From Lachnospiraceae bacterium (GTDB lineage: Bacteria; Bacillota; Clostridia; Lachnospirales; Lachnospiraceae), in NCBI GenBank assembly GCA_031272985.1, contig JAISSU010000008.1:38800-102799 (forward strand): a stretch of 64,000 bases of DNA. Reading direction: 5' to 3'. A program made the position numbers and the translations under genes. The notes beneath the pieces are model-generated. The model was given only the letters and a program-made list of their open reading frames with translations. It did no database searches and was not told where the DNA came from. Shown here in pieces: positions 469 to 57,031 of the stretch. How positions within the stretch are numbered: position 1 is the first letter of the stretch; every line of letters begins with the position of its first letter.

Positions 469-3054
469 TTAACTTTCTGTCTGTTCTGATGTTTCTGTAT
501 TTGTTGTTGCCTCCTGTGTATTAGATGATCCTTCGACTTGCGATTCGGCAATTTCCGAAGTTTCTTTCGCATCCTCTATGTCGTCATCAGAACCTTTTCT
601 TACTTTCGCGATGCTGGCAACGGTTATTTCATCATCGCTGGATAAATTAATGAGTTTAACCCCAACAGTAATTCTCCCGACTACCGAAATATTTGAGCAG
701 GCCATGCATATTACGGTGCCGGCGGTATTAATTATCATGATCTTATCGTCTTCATCAACGGCTTTTACACCTACGACATCCCCTGTTTTTTCGGTAATCT
801 TGTAACATTTTACGCCTTTACCTCCGCGGTTTTGACTCGTAAATTCGCTTATTAAAGTGCGTTTCCCCATACCTTTTTCGGAAACAATCAGAAGATGTGT
901 GCCCTGAACATCAAGCTGCATTCCTATGACTTCGTCGGAATCATTTAAATTCATGCCCCGCACACCCATTGAAACACGACCGGTTGAGCGTACATCGGTC
1001 TCATGAAATCTGATGCACTGACCGAATTTAGTAACAAGGAATACATCTTTTTCATTGTCTGTAAATTTAACCTCTATCAGCTCGTCCTCTTCTCTTAATA
1101 CAATTGCGGTAAGCCCTGTTTTACGGACGTTTTGATATTCGCGTATCGGGGTCTTCTTTACGAGACCCTTTTTCGTCGCCATAAGGAGATATTCACCCTC
1201 GCGGTATTCATCAATCGGAATTACCGCTGTTATTTTTTCTTTTTCTTCTCCTTCTTCTGAAGGTTGTAATTGCAGGAGATTAACGATATTGGTACCGCGC
1301 GCGGTACGCGAAGCTTCCGGAATTTCATAGCCTTTTAAGCGATATACCCGTCCCTTATTCGTAAAGAACATAATATAGTGATGAGTATTGGTCATAAACA
1401 ATTCTTCGACGTAATCATTGTCAATCGTCTGCATACCAATGACACCTTTTCCGCCGCGATTTTGGACTTTGAAGGTATCATTTTGCATGCGTTTAATGAA
1501 TCCGAGCTTAGTCATTGTAATTACGACGTCACTACGCGGAATTAAATCCTCATCCTTTAAATCCATTTCATCAAAACCAATTACGGTTCGACGTGCGTCG
1601 GCATATTTGGTTTTAATATCAATAATTTCCGTGCGGATCACTCCTAAAAGGAGCTTCCTGTCAGCCAAAATAGCTTTTAATTCAAGAATCTTCTTTTGAA
1701 GCTCGGCATATTCGGCCTCGAGTTTTTCGCGCTCCAGACCGGTAAGAGCTCGAAGCCTCATATCCACTATTGCCTGAGCCTGCGCATCGCTAAGCCCGAA
1801 TCTATCCATTAATGACTGCTTTGCGATAGCCACGGTCTGCGAGGAACGAATTATTTTGATGACTTCGTCAATATTATCAAGGGCAATTATCAAGCCCTCC
1901 AATATGTGAGCCCTCTCCTCGGCTTTATTTAATTCATACTGTGTACGCCTGGTTACGACCTCTTCCTGATGCTTTAAGTAGTATTTAAGCATTTCCAGAA
2001 GATTCATAACCTTAGGCTCATTATTAACGAGAGCCAGCATGATTACGCCAAAGGTATCCTGCAATTGCGTATGCTTATACAATTGATTTAATATGACATT
2101 CGCATTTACATCTTTTCGAAGCTCAATGCAAATCCTCATGCCCTCGCGGTTAGACTGGTCACTTAAATCTGTAATTCCTTCTATCTTTTTTTCTTTAACA
2201 AGGTCAGCTATTTTCTCAATTAATCTGGCTTTATTGACCATGAATGGAAGCTCGGTGACGACTATCCTGCTCTTTCCATTGTCCATGGTCTCAATATCCG
2301 TAATCGCCCGTACGCGAATTTTTCCGCGCCCGGTGCGATAGGCTTCATTAATTCCTAAAGTCCCCAGTATTTTCCCTCCTGTCGGAAAATCGGGACCGGG
2401 GATGATATTTAAAATATCTTCAAGACTGGTTTCGCCCGTTTCTTCGATTTGATCGTCAATAATTTTAACGACTGCGGAAATGACCTCCCCGAGATTATGC
2501 GGCGGAATATTGGTAGCCATACCGACAGCGATTCCGGAAGTTCCATTTACTAAAAGATTCGGAAATCTCGCGGGGAGAACTACAGGCTCTTTTTCTGTCT
2601 CATCGAAATTAGGAGTGAAGTCGACCGTATTTTTATTTAAGTCCGCAGTGAGCTCCATGGAGATCTTTGAAAGTCTCGCCTCGGTATAACGCATGGCGGC
2701 GGCACCATCTCCGTCGACGGAACCGAAATTTCCGTGCCCGTCTACGAGAGGGTGACGCGTTGACCATTCCTGCGCCATATTAACCAGAGCCCCGTAAATA
2801 GACGAATCGCCGTGCGGGTGATATTTACCCATTGTATCACCGACGATACGCGCACATTTACGATGCGGTTTATCAGGTCCGTTATTTAGCTCTATCATGG
2901 AGTAGAGAATACGCCTCTGTACGGGCTTTAAACCGTCGCGGACGTCCGGCAGCGCCCTTGATGCGATAACGCTCATCGCGTAATCTATGTACGAGGTCTC
3001 CATCGTTTTCTTTAAATCTACCTCATGAATCTTATCAAATATGGTATCTTCCAT
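469..3054 (-). CDS. gyrA: DNA gyrase subunit A
   Basis: Track ORF 469..3114. Carries GyrA hallmarks ([19 protein letters not shown], repeated C-terminal beta-pinwheel blades) and an acidic C-terminal tail. Likely true start is MEDTIFDKI at 3054; the first 20 codons of the track ORF are an upstream extension. Confidence 0.93.
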
Positions 3055-3130
3055 GTATATCTCCTTGTTGCATATATTTGTTTGTCGAAGACCTTCAAGG
3101 GCACACTCCGACATTGCATGATATTAATTT

Positions 3131-5218
<2,088 letters not shown>

Positions 5219-30168: not shown

Positions 30169-31389
30169 TCACCTGCGTCTTCCTTTTTGTTCTGCCGCTT
30201 TAAAATTATACAGTGGTTTAATTCTGGTCACAATTTCGGCAGTCGGTGCTATTTGTTCGATGATTTCTTCCATGGGCTTATAAGCCATAGGCGATTCGTC
30301 CAGCGTTTCCGGCAGTACGCAAGTGGAGTATATTCCGCTCATTTCGGCTTTGAATTCTTCCATTGTAAGCTCATTTCGGGCTTTATTGCGGCTCATGAGT
30401 CTTCCTGCGCCGTGCGGTGCGGAAAAATTCCAGTCGGGATTTCCTTTTCCCATGCAGATTAGGCTTCCGTCACGCATATTTATCGGAATCAGTAATTTTT
30501 CGCCTTCTTTTGCAGAGACGGAGCCTTTGCGCAGGATCATAGCCTGCGTGTCAATATAATTATGAATCGTCGTAAATTCGCCTGTTGATGCCAGTCGCAT
30601 CCCTATGAGAATAGTGTCAGCCATTGCCTTTCGGTTAAGCACCGCAAAGCGTTGTACAATCTTCATATCATGAATATAATCATCGAATAATGCGCCTTCG
30701 ACATAAGCTAAATCTTTCGGTACGGAAATTTCGGTTTCGGCTTTAAGACTTTTTATCGCCGTTTGGATTTCTTTATCGCGTCCTTCTTCTTTAAGCTGTG
30801 CAATAAAATCGTAAATTTGCACTTTTGAGCAGCCGCGCAGCGAGTTGTACCCTTCATTTTGATAGTAATCCGCCACCTCACAGCCCAAATGACGGCTCCC
30901 GGAGTGGACGACAATATAAATCTCCCCATTATCTCCGATATCAGCCTCGATAAAGTGATTTCCTCCGCCGAGAGTCCCGATGCTTTTATAGGCTCTATCT
31001 GCACTGATATGCTTTGCGCAACGTAATTGCGAGAGATCAATTTCCGATGCATATTTATGCGGTGTTTTGCGAATCTCAAAACCTGCCGGAATGTACTTAT
31101 GTATTACCTCATCTAATCGTTTAAAGTCAATGGATTTTACGTCCAATTGTATGGTTTCCATTCCGCATCCGATGTCCACCCCGACCATTCCAGGCACAAT
31201 TTTATCTGTAATGGTCATGGTCGTACCTATTGTGCAGCCTTTACCTGCGTGGACATCAGGCATTATTCGTATTTTACAATCTGAAAACTCCTCCTGATTG
31301 CAAACTTCCTTTATTTGCTGCGCCGCCGCGTCTTCTAATTGCGAAGTATAGCAAATGGCGCTGTTGAATTTTCCTTCTATCTTTACCAT
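30169..31389 (-). CDS. rtcB: RtcB-family RNA 3'-phosphate ligase
   Basis: 406 aa. Signature metal-binding motifs MPDVHAGKG and GVDIGCGM, with His-rich downstream segments (VHSGSRHLG, NHFIEA). Confidence 0.85.
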   Translation of the reverse strand: MVKIEGKFNSAICYTSQLEDAAAQQIKEVCNQEEFSDCKIRIMPDVHAGKGCTIGTTMTITDKIVPGMVGVDIGCGMETIQLDVKSIDFKRLDEVIHKYIPAGFEIRKTPHKYASEIDLSQLRCAKHISADRAYKSIGTLGGGNHFIEADIGDNGEIYIVVHSGSRHLGCEVADYYQNEGYNSLRGCSKVQIYDFIAQLKEEGRDKEIQTAIKSLKAETEISVPKDLAYVEGALFDDYIHDMKIVQRFAVLNRKAMADTILIGMRLASTGEFTTIHNYIDTQAMILRKGSVSAKEGEKLLIPINMRDGSLICMGKGNPDWNFSAPHGAGRLMSRNKARNELTMEEFKAEMSGIYSTCVLPETLDESPMAYKPMEEIIEQIAPTAEIVTRIKPLYNFKAAEQKGRRR

Positions 31390-31439: not shown

Positions 31440-32561
31440 TTAAGTCAATTGTTTCTCTTGTTTCTGTGTTCCGTTTAAAATTCCGGCAAGCCCCGTAAGT
31501 AAATCAGTGCCTCCATTTACAGTAATATTACCTACATTGTCACAGATTTTCTCAATATACTCAAGTTCTTTAAGCTTATAAAGAGTTTTATTCTCATCCA
31601 TAAGCTTTGCCGTATTCAAAAGGCTTCTGGTGGAAGCGACCTCCTCGCGTCTGGTAATAACATTGGCTAAAGCTTTCTTCTCGGCAATAAGGACCGTATT
31701 CATAATGCTGCGAATCTCGCCCGGAAGTATAATATCTTTAACTCCCGCATCGGTGAATGTCACATGATATTCGGCTTCCCTTGCTTTAAGATAAGTAAGC
31801 ATTGCCTTTGACAATTGCTCCTTATTTTCCAAAATCTCATCAAGGCGATATTTACCGACATACTCACGCAAGGCAAGCTGTAAAAGGATGTGAATCTGCC
31901 CCTCATAGTCGTCAATTTCGGTGTGAATCTTCACATAATCGGTGATTTTATAAGTGCACACGAAATTAATGCGAAGAGCCACCTTGTCAAGCGTTATCAT
32001 TTCCTGCCCGGTAATATCCATCTGCAATTGACGTGTATCGACGATACCAGCGGTTATTCTGGTTCCGTTGTTCCAGAAATAATACGTCCCCGGTTCAAGC
32101 AAACGCATAAACTTTTGGTCAAACATAAGGCGGGCCTTTTGGAAATCCGCTACCTCTATCTTTGTGTACAGCCTAATCGGGATGTAAGCAAAAATATATT
32201 TCGGGACATCTTCGCCTACTTCCGGTATTTTAGTGTCGACGATTCTAAACTCATGCTTGTCATGAATTTTGAAAAACGCATATTTCCCGCTGGGCAATAC
32301 CTCTTTGAATTTATCGTTTACAAAATGCAAAGCAAGAGTCTCATCGGCGACCTCCAAAGTTTCCACCTCGTTTGCAATATCAGTATTTTCAAGAAATACT
32401 TCAATTGCATAGTCCTTTACTCTGAAATTGCCGCTTGCCGGTACAATTTCCACGCTAAAGCCGGAACCGAATCTTTTGTGTTTACCCGGCTTAAGGTAGT
32501 CTATAAATTTTCCATTTTTAAAAAGAAATCCTCTTTGATTCTCGTTAATAATTGTTCTCAT
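31440..32561 (-). CDS. SPFH/band-7 (stomatin/prohibitin/flotillin-like) domain protein lacking an obvious TM anchor
   Basis: The track ORF extends to 32621. The start at 32561 (MRTIINENQRGFLFKNGK) has an AAGGGAGGA ribosome-binding site 8 nt upstream. SPFH core (...VDTRQLQMDITGQEMITLDKVALRINFVCTYKI...) and a C-terminal coiled coil. Confidence 0.65.
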   Translation of the reverse strand: MRTIINENQRGFLFKNGKFIDYLKPGKHKRFGSGFSVEIVPASGNFRVKDYAIEVFLENTDIANEVETLEVADETLALHFVNDKFKEVLPSGKYAFFKIHDKHEFRIVDTKIPEVGEDVPKYIFAYIPIRLYTKIEVADFQKARLMFDQKFMRLLEPGTYYFWNNGTRITAGIVDTRQLQMDITGQEMITLDKVALRINFVCTYKITDYVKIHTEIDDYEGQIHILLQLALREYVGKYRLDEILENKEQLSKAMLTYLKAREAEYHVTFTDAGVKDIILPGEIRSIMNTVLIAEKKALANVITRREEVASTRSLLNTAKLMDENKTLYKLKELEYIEKICDNVGNITVNGGTDLLTGLAGILNGTQKQEKQLT

Positions 32562-32844
32562 TAGTACATTCCTCCCTTTTGTTGGTGTTTTTGCGGATTG
32601 CCCATACTGCGATTGCGGCAAAATGATTAAAGCATCTCATCGGCGATTGCGGAAGCGACAATGCTCTGGCAAAGGCGAATCATAAGCGGTATCCTCACTT
32701 CGGCAAGGCAAAAGCGGTACTGCATTTCCATTTCCCTTTAAAAGCGGCTATGTAATGCGAGACAATCCGCCACACCATTGTTAATTATTTTTGAGCTTCG
32801 AGATCTAATTGCTTTTGAGGCAATTTCCAAACCATTGGCTGACC

Positions 32845-32965
32845 TTTTATAAGATCAGGCGGGATTTGAACCCGCGATACACGCAAGTTACGCTTGGCAT
32901 ACCGTGAAAGCATGGCTTTTGGCACCGCCGGATAATCCGGATATCCGCGCAAAAGCGACCTTGCA
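32845..32965 (-). ncRNA. candidate structured ncRNA/leader containing a perfect tRNA T-arm mimic (tRNA-like element, not a functional tRNA)
   Basis: On the minus strand GCGGG-TTCAAAT-CCCGC (plus coordinates 32859-32875) is a 5-bp stem with a G53:C61-type closing pair and a 7-nt TTCAAAT loop that matches the T-loop consensus. A 6-bp hairpin (CTGATC..GGTCAG) follows it. No pairing partner for an acceptor stem and no anticodon arm were found. A TATAAT lies about 95 nt upstream on the same strand. Confidence 0.3.
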
Positions 32966-33026
32966 AAATTGATTATATGAATTGAAACGCAGAAAATCGT
33001 GGAAAAAAAGTTGCGAACTTAAAAAA

Positions 33027-33962
33027 TTAAATTTTGATTGTGCCAGAAAGAGCAAGTTGCATCCTGATTCGTTCTCTTATCAACCCAATAAAATGCTCAG
33101 GTCCGGTTACCTTAAGCATAGGACCAAAAGACAGAATCCTGATAAGAATTTCCGTCTCATCCAAAGCTTCGTAAGTCAGCTTTACATCGTATGTATCGTC
33201 ATCTAAGCGTCTGGTTTCCTTGCGGCAGTCCGAAAAATGAAGCATAACCCGTTCAAGCGCGTTGCGTTCATTTTTTAGCGTGAATTGAACCAAGGCCTCT
33301 TGGCGTTTCGGAATAATCAGACGTTCGCCTTCATAGTTTTCGGCTAAGGTGCAGCTTTTGATGCGACTTAGGTTAATATACGCAGCATATCTGCCACCTG
33401 CTGTTTCAAGCCTGAATTTATCATCCTTTGAAGAATATTCCAAACGATAAGGGATAAAGCGCCCATTTACACTTTTGTTGTGGCGGTTGCGATATTCGAT
33501 ATTTAGTCGCCGCTGTTCGTAAAAGGCTTTCAGTATCGTCCTAAAGTGTAAGATGTAAGACTCGTCAGTAAAGGGATCCCCATCTAAATAGCGATCAAAG
33601 TAAACAAAGTCATCCGGGGTAAATAACGGCTCTACATGTTCAAGCCCCGAAACGCAGATATCAAAAAGCCTGATGCGGGGGTCGAGTAATAGTGCTTTTA
33701 GCCAACGTTTTTGCAAAATCGTTAAAGGCATGGAAGGTTTATTTTTAATCGGTGTATTAAAATTCTTATCCATAATCAACCAGTCACCGTTTTTAAGCGA
33801 TGGGATAATGCTCAAAACGCTTTCGGAAAACGCCCGATCTCGGATAATCCGGACAATGCGTTTTTCATTGATTTCGCCTTCCAGTGTATCTGTAATGATG
33901 GCGGCAATCGCGTTAAAATATGCGCTGTAGACCTCGCTAAAGAGCATTCTCGTTACCTCCAT
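33027..33962 (-). CDS. WYL-domain transcriptional regulator (second of a tandem pair)
   Basis: 311 aa. WYL-like core ...GRFIPYRLEYSSKDDKFRLETAGGRYAAYINLSRIKSCTL plus a C-terminal extension. Overlaps the upstream WYL gene's 3' end. Confidence 0.55.
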   Translation of the reverse strand: MEVTRMLFSEVYSAYFNAIAAIITDTLEGEINEKRIVRIIRDRAFSESVLSIIPSLKNGDWLIMDKNFNTPIKNKPSMPLTILQKRWLKALLLDPRIRLFDICVSGLEHVEPLFTPDDFVYFDRYLDGDPFTDESYILHFRTILKAFYEQRRLNIEYRNRHNKSVNGRFIPYRLEYSSKDDKFRLETAGGRYAAYINLSRIKSCTLAENYEGERLIIPKRQEALVQFTLKNERNALERVMLHFSDCRKETRRLDDDTYDVKLTYEALDETEILIRILSFGPMLKVTGPEHFIGLIRERIRMQLALSGTIKI

Positions 33963-35178
33963 ACATTTTATTCAAAGTATCAAAATCCTCCCAAAACAGC
34001 TGTTGTGTCCTTCGGTCAGTGCACTTTAGCGAACATATACGCCCTATAAAGGTCCGAAGCCACGGAATCATCTCCCCGGGATCATATACATCAGCGGAAA
34101 ACTTCCATTCAGTTTCTGAAATCTGTGATATATTGCCACTTCGTTTTTCCCTCTTAAGCCTGTTAATTATATGAGCATCTTTTGGATCAATATTAAGTGT
34201 CATTTCGATATGAGAAGGTTCATGAAAAGCAGGGGAAACGCCCCATACATGCGGCATATCATCCTTTAGCATATCCTGATAAAAAGCGAACTCACAGCAT
34301 GTATCCAAAGGTTTTACTTTGTTGATTGCATCTATGCGTATGAATTGAATCCTCTTTTTTGAGCTGACATAAGCCGCGACATATTGTCTGCCGCCCTGGG
34401 TGCTTATATAGATTTTAAGAGGTACGGCGATAATCTTTCTGTGACGCCTTCGGTGGTCGGTCGCCGTTTCGAGTTCTACCTGCTTTTTATCATGTATTGA
34501 AGATAATAAATCAAGTAATATTCCATCATCCAAAGCAAACAAGAAGTATTGATGTTTAAATGAAAAAATTGGAAGCGGCGGTTCTTTGTACTTGTCCAGA
34601 ATAAAGCTTCCGATTACTCCGAGAGGATTTCCTTCTGAAAAGAAGGTGACAGCGTCTTTCCACAAATCCAATGGGATTTCGTTATCGGGCAGGAGATACA
34701 GATGTTGTTTTCCTTCTTGAATTCTATTAATCAAGCCGATTTCAGTATATTCTTTCAGCTTTTTTCGCAAGGTAGACACATCTATCTCATCGGGGCAGTC
34801 GAAAAAAGCCATGTAATCATTGTCGATAGACTCAATCAATTCTGTAAGGCTTCTCGGATTTTTGTCAGCTAAGATATCGAGAAGAATAAAGTGCAGATTA
34901 ATATCATTTTTCGTAAAACTCGCGGCTTTCCACGCCGTGTAGAAAGGGTTATGCGCAATATGCCTGCTGTCAAGGATAAGAAAAACCGTTTTCTGATTAG
35001 CGTCCTGTCGAAATGACATATAATCCGAAAGCCAGCTCTCGATACGCCGCTTTTCGTTATCGTAACTGCGAGTGCTCTTTGTGCCGACTTGCTCCCTGCT
35101 CTTAAAACCGTACACAAAAAACTCTCGTAAATAATCACGAATACGCGAAACATCTTTAATTAGCTCGTTGTAAGCCAT
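33937..35178 (-). CDS. HTH-WYL-WCX-type transcriptional regulator (first of a tandem pair; PafB/PafC- or BrxR-like architecture)
   Basis: 413 aa. N-terminal winged-HTH-like region and a central WYL domain (KIIAVPLKIYISTQGGRQYVAAYVSSKKRIQFIRIDAINKV), which fits the ...P.xL....WYL.a....R.FRldRI pattern. Confidence 0.65.
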   Translation of the reverse strand: MAYNELIKDVSRIRDYLREFFVYGFKSREQVGTKSTRSYDNEKRRIESWLSDYMSFRQDANQKTVFLILDSRHIAHNPFYTAWKAASFTKNDINLHFILLDILADKNPRSLTELIESIDNDYMAFFDCPDEIDVSTLRKKLKEYTEIGLINRIQEGKQHLYLLPDNEIPLDLWKDAVTFFSEGNPLGVIGSFILDKYKEPPLPIFSFKHQYFLFALDDGILLDLLSSIHDKKQVELETATDHRRRHRKIIAVPLKIYISTQGGRQYVAAYVSSKKRIQFIRIDAINKVKPLDTCCEFAFYQDMLKDDMPHVWGVSPAFHEPSHIEMTLNIDPKDAHIINRLKREKRSGNISQISETEWKFSADVYDPGEMIPWLRTFIGRICSLKCTDRRTQQLFWEDFDTLNKMYGGNENAL

Positions 35179-50150: not shown

Positions 50151-50219
50151 TTGTGTGGTCCCCCTCGGAAATACACTAAAAACCTGATTGAAAGTGCTAT
50201 ATTTAATTGTCAGCAGAAA

Positions 50220-50293
50220 CGTCCATAAGAGGATTCGAACCTCCGGCCTGTCGCTTAGGAGGCGACCGCTCTATCCTGCTGAGCTATATGGAC
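50220..50293 (-). tRNA. tRNA-Arg (anticodon CCT)
   Basis: 74-nt cloverleaf on the minus strand. 7-bp acceptor stem (GTCCATA/TATGGAC), D-arm GCTC..GAGC, anticodon stem GTCGC/GCGAC with loop CTCCTAA, T-arm GGAGG-TTCGAAT-CCTCT. CCA is not encoded. Confidence 0.9.
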
Positions 50294-50327
50294 GTACAAA
50301 ATGTACTTCTTTGGTACGTCCGTTACT

Positions 50328-56420: not shown

Positions 56421-57031
56421 CTAAAAATGGCCCACTCATGTTGCGCACTCTTCAGCAGTATTACTTTCGCAAAATTAATTCTACTGATTCTGTGGGCATT
56501 AGGGAAGGGGGTAACCTCTTTCCTTTTTTAGTATGACGGGCATGCCGTCAGTCTGTGGTGAAAGTCCACAAGGGGCGTAGTTGCCGACGAACCCCAAAGC
56601 GACTCCCAAGGCTTACACTGTGAAGTGTGGGCGAGAAGAAGGGATAGCGAAATCGTAGCCTGACGAACAGAAACCTGATATAAGGCGTACATGGCGGATA
56701 AGCTGGCTAAAGACAGCGAAGTCCAAAAGGCAACCGTAACCCATGTGCGTAAATCAGGCAGGTAGACGAGGAAAGACTGGGAGGCTTATCCCGTGAGGTC
56801 TCACAGGCGGTATCATTAGCCGTAGTAACAATGAACTGTGAGAAGTCAGCAGAAGCCGTAGTAGGCAGCGCTTTGAAATGGGCACTGCCAAAGGGCTGAA
56901 CAACGTAACTGTGTAATCAAATGTATGCTCCATGGAATACCTGACGGCAGGAAGGGCAAAACGTAAATGAGCAGACCCTGTGCCACATAGGGCGAATCCA
57001 TGAAACCGGAAAGGAGAAAGCACACAATGCA

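Follow-up and report, generated by a model that had tools for sequence, protein, structure and literature searches.

What lies in the long untranslated gap upstream of a slipin-rtcB operon, and why should it contain a tRNA-like hairpin? The question was raised by a Lachnospiraceae metagenome-assembled genome, from which we analyzed one stretch of 64,000 nucleotides (nt), here called the window (Lachnospiraceae bacterium, GCA_031272985.1, contig JAISSU010000008.1, positions 38,800-102,799; coordinates below are those within the window). On its minus strand, the genes for a 413-amino-acid (aa) protein and a 311-aa WYL protein are followed by a gap of 465 nt, and then by genes for slipin, RtcB, a GNAT acetyltransferase, and a Dabb protein. 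A first, sequence-only reading had found in this gap a perfect mimic of a tRNA T-arm and had conjectured, from its position in front of rtcB, a part in RNA-repair signaling or substrate mimicry; RtcB is indeed encoded downstream from slipin. By comparing sequences across related genomes, we predict that the gap encodes one conserved structured RNA of ~400 nt, extending approximately from 32965 to 32593 on the minus strand and made of a domain A, a tRNA-like module, and a domain C, with about 120 base pairs having covariation support over the three domains. The central module is, on the same grounds, best described as a circularly permuted mimic of tRNA.

The T-arm (GCGGGTTCAAATCCCGC) is present where it had been reported, at 32859-32875 on the minus strand, which is that of the operon; its 5-bp stem (GCGGG/CCCGC) closes the loop UUCAAAU. 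The loop motif GGTTCRANTCC occurs twice in the 64 kb against a chance expectation of 0.32, and 4 of 100 shuffled sequences reach two matches. The second occurrence, at 50231, belongs to a real tRNA-Arg (CCU) gene (50219-50294, minus strand), which carries the only other T-loop motif of the window. The motif alone being mildly improbable, the hairpin is suggestive by itself, and it is conservation that decides. Searches for known RNA classes were conducted with ARAGORN and Rfam. A canonical cloverleaf, with an acceptor formed from the 5' and 3' ends, was not found by ARAGORN, whose sole call in the window is the tRNA-Arg and which calls nothing upstream of slipin among 34 loci of relatives. Rfam was scanned at gathering scores (window and 15 related loci), at E ≤ 10 (the gap region), and at E ≤ 1 (12 loci). 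At the gathering score, no family was assigned to the gap RNA in the window or in the 15 loci, and Rfam 15 has no entry for this RNA family; even at E ≤ 10, the region gave no match to the tRNA model and none to Y-RNA families. What the scan did return is an alignment of the T-arm to that of transfer-messenger RNA (tmRNA), at 13.8 bits, with no other part of the gap matched. The best relative on the Rfam tRNA model (L062) reaches 28.2 bits versus a gathering score of 29. The statement that this is not a tRNA gene holds. With ARAGORN and Rfam yielding a bare T-arm only, we rejected a tRNA, tmRNA, or Y RNA gene.

For comparison, 80 loci were fetched from reference genomes through an alignment of slipin homologs, covering Lachnospiraceae, Oscillospiraceae, Ruminococcaceae, Acutalibacteraceae, Erysipelotrichaceae, Peptostreptococcaceae, and other families. 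Using blastn and pattern searches, we found in nearly all of them a T-loop (GGTTCGAATCC) upstream of slipin and, ~140-225 nt further upstream, a conserved element that we call M1. We then built a covariance model (R1) of the tRNA-like module, whose seed consists of 20 relatives structured by hand and excludes the window. R1 recognizes the window at 32807-32881 (minus strand) over its full length (model positions 1-76), scoring 58.3 bits (E ~6e-14). At E ≤ 2e-4, the model finds a match in 66 of the 80 slipin loci, in every case upstream of slipin and on its strand. When 61 sequences are aligned to the model, 96.2% of the cells are paired and 18 of the 20 pairs exhibit compensatory changes. Sliding the partner by one to three columns reduces the pairing to 35-47%. 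Because this alignment was fitted to R1, and is thus biased towards structure, we also relied on alignments that were not fitted. For the tRNA-like module alone, MAFFT followed by RNAalifold recovered only the T-arm, since loop lengths differ among relatives, which is why the hand-structured seed and the covariance model were necessary.

Covariation extends through the four helices of the module. The stem of the T-arm covaries (GC:42, AU:19; CG:54, UA:7), with both loop-proximal G-C pairs invariant, and the loop reads UUCGAAU in 44 of the 61 aligned sequences. Directly abutting it is a hairpin, H2 (CUGAUCUU-AUAA-AAGGUCAG, 32839-32858, minus strand). A second hairpin had been noticed at this place and described as 6 bp long; the hairpin is there, but it comprises 8 bp (32858-32839). 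All seven modeled pairs of H2 show compensatory changes and 96.8% of its cells are paired; its equivalents in relatives vary in sequence and keep their pairing (e.g., GUAUGC/GCAUAU, GUGCGU/ACGUAU, CUGACCU/AGUCAG). The acceptor, whose stem partner had been declared missing, is this closed hairpin right after the T-arm. An alternative acceptor stem, formed through the conserved strand GUAUGCC and inspired by the near-threshold tRNA match of L062, was rejected, because GUAUGCC is invariant and the strand following the T-arm covaries with the downstream strand of H2. Next comes H3 (CCAA-UGGU-UUGG, 32827-32838, minus strand), a D-arm-like hairpin with GG in its loop, in which all three modeled pairs covary and 97.2% of cells are paired. 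In relatives, it follows H2 after 1-2 nt, with a stem of 3-4 bp and a loop that has 6 nt in 45 of 61 sequences; the loop consensus is R-N-G-G-N-U, with UGG in 45 of 61 and GG in most of the loops tallied. The module ends with a capped hairpin, H4 (AUUGC-CUCAAAA-GCAAU, 32808-32824, minus strand), with compensatory changes in five of five pairs and a loop that in relatives is UUCG (13) or GAAA (12). These observations bear on the simplest explanation of the T-arm, namely that it is the remnant of a degraded tRNA gene or a hairpin formed by chance. The modest rarity of the loop motif, one of whose two copies is in a real tRNA, speaks for it, and so does the finding that the whole region of the window folds no better than shuffled sequences (z = -1.08). 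The module is nevertheless conserved, and keeps its place, in 66 of 80 loci, over several families of Clostridia and Erysipelotrichia, with compensatory changes in all four helices and with conserved domains on both sides. The sequence-only reading had named, as one outcome that would overturn it, a degraded tRNA gene with its remainder present in relatives; ARAGORN found no intact tRNA gene there in the 34 loci. On the strength of conservation and covariation, we exclude this explanation, to which we assign hardly any probability.

The module thus has both a T-arm, whose loop fits UUCRANU, and a D-arm containing GG, but in permuted order, the D-arm coming after the T-arm. The succession of T-arm, closed acceptor, and D-arm-like hairpin makes it a permuted tRNA mimic, in which the GG of the H3 loop could dock onto the T-loop, forming an elbow as in tRNA. 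The D-arm-like hairpin and the two flanking domains had been missed by the sequence-only reading. The closest structural analog is the one already put forward from the sequence, YrlA's tRNA-like domain, YrlA being the bacterial Y RNA encoded in rsr-yrlBA-rtcBA operons (Chen et al. 2014, PMC4201824). For YrlA of S. Typhimurium, the crystal structure (PDB 6cu1) is described as a tRNA fold with a closed acceptor, in which the T stem-loop occupies nt 33-49, the acceptor stem-loop nt 50-64, and the D stem-loop nt 67-81 (Wang et al. 2018, bioRxiv 10.1101/312249). The order is shared: T stem-loop, closed acceptor stem-loop (the position of H2), and, after 1-2 nt (2 nt in YrlA), D stem-loop. In both RNAs, conservation is found in the T and D loops, the acceptor keeps its pairing through changes of sequence, there is no free CCA end, and the gene sits inside an RtcB operon. 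The differences are also evident. No gene for Ro60/Rsr is found nearby, its place being taken by slipin: None of the ten open reading frames (ORFs) around the RNA (28.8-39.0 kb) matches the TROVE domain. The Ro-binding motif GNCGAAN0-1G occurs in none of 65 sequences within their first 45 nt, nor in the window RNA between the transcription start and 100 nt past the T-loop. Finally, unlike YrlA, the module is embedded between two large additional domains, for a total of ~400 nt.

Upstream of the module, domain A (32882-32965, minus strand; alignments A2, A7, and A10) is a conserved three-way junction. A helix of ~13 bp, P1 (GCAAGG.../...CUUGC, 32965-32953 with 32895-32882), encloses two hairpins, P2 (32947-32929) and P3 (32926-32899), which are seen on a plain MAFFT alignment. 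Hardly any variation is seen in the joining strands GCGGUGC (32928-32922) and GUAUGCC (32902-32896). On the plain alignment, 96.7% of the cells of P2 and P3 are paired, versus 13-54% in slid controls. MAFFT cannot align the 3' strand of P1, and we therefore tested this helix without an alignment: Duplexes between native 5' and 3' strands have a mean energy of -12.35 kcal/mol versus -9.03 kcal/mol with swapped partners, and none of 5000 permutations was as low. Downstream from the module, domain C (32593-32770, minus strand) is predicted by RNAalifold from plain MAFFT alignments as a multi-helix fold of ~180 nt. Its helix C1 joins GCGGAUUGUC (32770-32761) with GGGCAAUCCGC (32603-32593), and helix C2 pairs 32720-32708 with 32616-32604; the conserved core includes CUUGCC..GGAUACCGC (32707-32686), GCCAGAG..UUCCGC (32670-32649), and GCUUUAAUCAUUUUGCCGC (32633-32615), all on the minus strand. 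RNAalifold on the plain alignment of 14 complete leaders gave 98 pairs, of which 59 are compensatory, and the same nested helices of domain C were obtained from 17 more divergent sequences including the window (34 pairs, 30 compensatory). Domain C ends 15-40 unconserved nt short of the ribosome-binding site of slipin. Within it fall the short direct repeats that had been pointed out on the plus strand, and all of them are present (GCGATTGCGG at 32609 and 32643, GCGGATTGC at 32593, GGCAAGGC at 32702, GGCAAAGGC at 32668, and AAGCGGTA at 32684 and 32712). Functionally, though, they are not repeats: The alignments identify them as helix strands and conserved loop motifs of the covarying domain C.

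The start of slipin defines where the gap ends. We place it at the ATG at 32561-32559 (minus strand), which is preceded at 9 nt by the ribosome-binding site GGGAGG (32571-32576, minus strand) and gives an N terminus that agrees with homologs. The untranslated gap therefore spans 32562-33026 (465 nt), and the ~400-nt gap reported earlier is real, but its boundary at 32622 was wrong. A slipin ORF called mechanically (31440-32621, minus strand) begins at TTG 32621, within domain C, so that 60 nt of the RNA would be masked in an annotation by longest ORF. The gap contains only short ORFs, of at most 55 aa (no conservation test was made on them), and we rejected it as coding sequence. An origin from a mobile element was also rejected, with no similarity found in plasmid or phage collections.

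How is this RNA made? The near-invariant element M1 (AAGTTCGCAACTTTTTTTCCACGA, 23 nt, 32997-33020, minus strand; consensus AGTTCGCAgCTTTTTTTCCgTGA over 75 loci) begins directly after the stop codon of the 311-aa WYL gene and occurs once in the window, against 0.00 times expected by chance. The TATAAT box noticed earlier on the operon strand lies at 32972-32977 (minus strand) and aligns with a -10 box conserved in relatives, with a spacing to M1 that is also conserved: The box begins 41 nt downstream from the G of M1's GTTCGC in 51 of 75 loci. The GCAAGG with which the RNA begins follows 12 nt after the start of the box (36 loci), and transcription presumably starts near 32965. With respect to this promoter, M1 spans approximately -53 to -32, its end (GTGAta) corresponding to a weak -35, and we presume that it combines this -35 with a binding site for WYL regulators. 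In 47 of 73 relatives (e.g., L016:3439-3485 and L074:3498-3545), M1 doubles as the 3' arm of an 11-bp inverted repeat that runs into T7, the whole resembling a terminator hairpin ending the upstream WYL genes. The left arm of this repeat tolerates G-U-compatible changes and is absent in the window, L001, and L003, whereas the right arm, M1 itself, is invariant, which indicates that M1 is conserved for a reason beyond hairpin formation.

Candidates for the factors binding M1 are encoded immediately upstream. The 311-aa protein (33027-33962, minus strand; 306 aa annotated) had been labeled a WYL protein from the sequence. Its Pfam WYL score of 19.6 bits falls below the cut-off of 21.8, but the label stands at the level of fold: With an AlphaFold (AF2) model of mean predicted local distance difference test score (pLDDT) 78.5, Foldseek retrieved PafBC as the best match, then DriD, CapW, and BrxR (E 1.5e-8 to 1e-4, probability 1.00), regulators that respond to single-stranded nucleic acid. 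The model displays the architecture of winged helix-turn-helix (wHTH)-WYL-WCX proteins, with a predicted helical DNA-binding part at the N terminus, a WYL beta-barrel, and an extension at the C terminus. The comparison of folds was necessary because sequence searches with both upstream proteins against PDB and NCBIfam returned nothing. The gene for the second WYL-family protein, of 413 aa (33937-35178, minus strand), overlaps that of the first by 26 nt. This protein has no direct Pfam match, and its homologs contain PF13280 and go by the name of WYL domain-containing or ArsR-type regulators; the homologs of both upstream proteins are thus WYL proteins. The two adjacent, overlapping genes resemble the pafB-pafC pair. 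Synteny is extensive, with the 311-aa protein upstream of M1 in 63 of the 80 loci, the 413-aa protein in 57, and RtcB downstream from slipin in 56. Like PafBC, DriD, and CapW (PDB 9fnd, 6sj9, 8tp8, 9c5g), the 311-aa protein has the predicted wHTH-WYL fold and a presumed target site overlapping the -35 region of a promoter in which the -35 is poor, and its gene stands beside that of a WYL paralog, as in PafBC, a heterodimer of two paralogs. It differs in its low identity to these factors (11-14%), whose known ligands are single-stranded DNA, and in the target, which here is an RNA-repair operon and not DNA-damage or phage-defense genes. We infer that the WYL pair binds M1. The arrangement recalls the rtcBA operon of E. 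coli and Salmonella, controlled by RtcR, a sigma-54 enhancer-binding regulator whose CARF domain senses tRNA fragments (Hughes et al. 2020, PMC7790460). In both cases, an RtcB operon has a regulator of its own that bears a domain for sensing nucleic acids, and an RNA shaped like tRNA takes part; in contrast to RtcR, here the candidate regulators are two proteins of the wHTH-WYL type, beside a sigma-70-type promoter with a good -10 and a weak -35.

Relatives elaborate on the module in two ways. About 20 loci, in addition to L016 (3644-3658), have a second T-arm (GGGGUUCAACUCCCC) 23-51 nt upstream of the main one, with a long hairpin and a conserved UGGCAAUCGAAUGAG ahead of it. About one locus in three (L016:3663-3677, L024, L026, L029, L051, L059, L068, and others) has a hairpin like an anticodon arm, with a 7-nt loop CU-NNN-AA, placed 5-7 nt before the T-arm; L062, the relative with the best score on the Rfam tRNA model, is one of them. 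The window RNA has neither, and belongs to a minimal variant common to L001, L002, L003, L007, and L013. Twelve of the ~22 anticodon-like loops read GUN (7 GUC, 3 GUA, 1 GUG, and 1 GUU), the anticodons of queuosine tRNAs. GUN loops contain the U-G-U element that is recognized by tRNA-guanine transglycosylase and targeted by colicin E5. Such loops speak for a further reading, in which the RNA would be a sentinel or decoy whose tRNA-like module is cut by invading anticodon nucleases or ribotoxins, either sparing the tRNAs or altering the leader so as to boost the ligase that reseals it. According to the literature, RtcB joins 2',3'-cyclic phosphate and 5'-OH ends, as made by such nucleases, and a role as competitive inhibitor has been proposed for YrlA. 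But the anticodon-like hairpin is restricted to that third of the loci and is missing from the window, and the Salmonella YrlA is reported in the literature not to be cleaved by an SOS-induced nuclease. We find a decoy quite improbable.

We detected no terminator-like site between the RNA and slipin on the minus strand, and the RNA is thus, at least initially, the leader of the operon transcript. It could then act in cis, as an operator bound by RtcB, slipin, a tRNA, or a tRNA fragment, and control the translation or stability of slipin-rtcB in the manner of the thrS leader or a T-box. Mimicry of tRNA is an established means of feedback control in leaders. The RNA adjoins the first coding gene without a break, and it always occupies the 5' end of the operon, even when another gene comes first. 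That situation is found in four loci (L034:~850-1480, L061:~2830-3460, L068:~3340-3990, and L075:~3360-3990), where an extra ORF of ~220 aa (range ~215-230; starting with MLFFFPTKRNKLL...) is inserted between slipin and a complete RNA with domains A, B, and C. We also considered whether domain C recurs before slipin where a gene is inserted, and rejected the idea, the extra GGATACCG-like matches being chance occurrences inside the inserted ORF. The insertion indicates that the RNA heads the operon as a self-contained unit and is not an operator specific to slipin. We also found no expression platform, neither a terminator/antiterminator pair nor masking of the ribosome site. The sole long-range pairing with the ribosome-binding site that folding suggested, an anti-Shine-Dalgarno pairing by the 5'-end CUUC (from RNAalifold and the minimum free energy fold), was rejected for lack of co-variation: Native pairs give -4.55 kcal/mol versus -4.64 kcal/mol when permuted, with 3534 of 5000 permutations as low. 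Moreover, unconserved nucleotides (15-40) separate domain C from the ribosome-binding site, Rfam gives no T-box or riboswitch match, and known protein-binding leaders are smaller than these ~400 nt and have fewer conserved unpaired motifs. We therefore rank a cis-regulatory leader second, as a serious but rather unlikely alternative.

A tRNA-like RNA had been anticipated in this genomic setting. The b7a-tRNA (for "band 7-associated tRNA"), a prediction of Burroughs and Aravind (2016, NAR 44:8525) as relayed in the Discussion of Wang et al. (2018, bioRxiv 10.1101/312249), is described there as adjoining a Band-7 protein and RtcB and as strongly resembling a tRNA, and as predicted only. Our RNA is likewise a predicted tRNA-like noncoding RNA adjoining a Band-7 (SPFH/slipin) gene and RtcB. 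Given the same gene context, it probably represents the b7a-tRNA or a clostridial variant of it, a comparison made with that second-hand description. As far as this account goes, the tRNA-like RNA of the Band-7/RtcB context was predicted in outline in 2016, and its three-domain structure, its promoter, and its candidate regulators are defined here. Slipin and RtcB are linked in Pseudomonas too, with an SPFH gene inside the rtc locus.

What, then, does the RNA do? Known here from its sequence, conservation, and covariation, it is most readily understood as a tRNA-mimic partner of the slipin-RtcB repair proteins, a role that we consider the likeliest and hold to be fairly probable. Its self-contained character, its ~400-nt size, and its many conserved unpaired motifs favor a partner RNA, comparable to YrlA in rsr-yrlBA-rtcBA. 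We propose that transcription of the RNA would start at a promoter of its own, heading the slipin-rtcB operon, and that this promoter would probably be switched on by the two adjacent WYL regulators, a PafBC-like pair, binding M1 in response to a nucleic-acid damage signal. The RNA would in this way be produced in fixed proportion with slipin and RtcB and serve as their partner. Its tRNA-like module would offer a surface shaped like tRNA, for RtcB or for enzymes or nucleases directed at tRNA, and the flanking domains would provide a platform for protein binding, in parallel with the Y RNA that tethers Ro60 to an effector.

Several points count against this interpretation. Without the anticodon-like hairpin and the second T-arm, the mimicry is partial in the window RNA. 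Unlike in YrlA, no helix between the 5' and 3' strands closes the module below the D-arm, as the equivalent of the anticodon stem does there: The strand before the T-arm is engaged in P1 or in a local hairpin and the strand after the D-arm in the local H4, P1 and H4 being separate. The b7a-tRNA is said to be "strongly resembling an authentic tRNA," whereas this RNA is invisible to ARAGORN and to the Rfam tRNA model and has a closed acceptor. The count of covarying pairs in the module comes from the alignment fitted to the model and leans to structure, and part of the conservation of M1 may be due to its role as a terminator arm.

A bolder version of the partner hypothesis, offered tentatively and with low confidence, is that the ~400-nt RNA would be a subunit of a slipin-RtcB ribonucleoprotein, a repair particle like that of Ro60 and Y RNA but assembled on a ring- or cage-forming SPFH protein. 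It would then count as a large bacterial noncoding RNA of complex fold that Rfam lacks. Its permuted tRNA module, with the GUN loops present in relatives, would lure anticodon nucleases as a bait or decoy and be repaired by the particle's own ligase.

The two protein genes following the RNA had been correctly labeled from the sequence as SPFH and RtcB, as Pfam shows. The slipin gene (31440-32561, minus strand) matches Band_7 with E 1e-28 and has more than 6900 homologs, named slipin family protein at NCBI; the gene for the RtcB ligase (30169-31389, minus strand) matches the RtcB family with E 5.7e-62. Some close homologs of slipin (P0002, P0008, P0030, P0044, P0050, and P0096) are 500-640 aa long versus 365 aa, which suggests fusions or N-terminal extensions. 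Elsewhere in the window, Rfam matches group II intron domains D1-D4 at 56614-56896 (plus strand; 126.7 and 47.7 bits).

The role of tRNA-like RNAs encoded beside RtcB, such as YrlA and the b7a-tRNA, is an open question in bacterial RNA repair. To this question, the present analysis contributes a three-domain structure with a covariance model, a defined promoter, a candidate operator, and a candidate PafBC-like regulator pair for an RNA that heads the slipin-RtcB RNA-repair operon in many gut Clostridia, with Oscillibacter valericigenes Sjm18-20 (AP012044.1, locus L074), Robinsoniella peoriensis, and Dielma fastidiosa among the cultured carriers. If the RNA were indeed a subunit of a slipin-RtcB particle, the principle of Ro and Y RNA would extend to a second, unrelated protein scaffold, and one more large structured RNA would join the short list of those found in bacteria.

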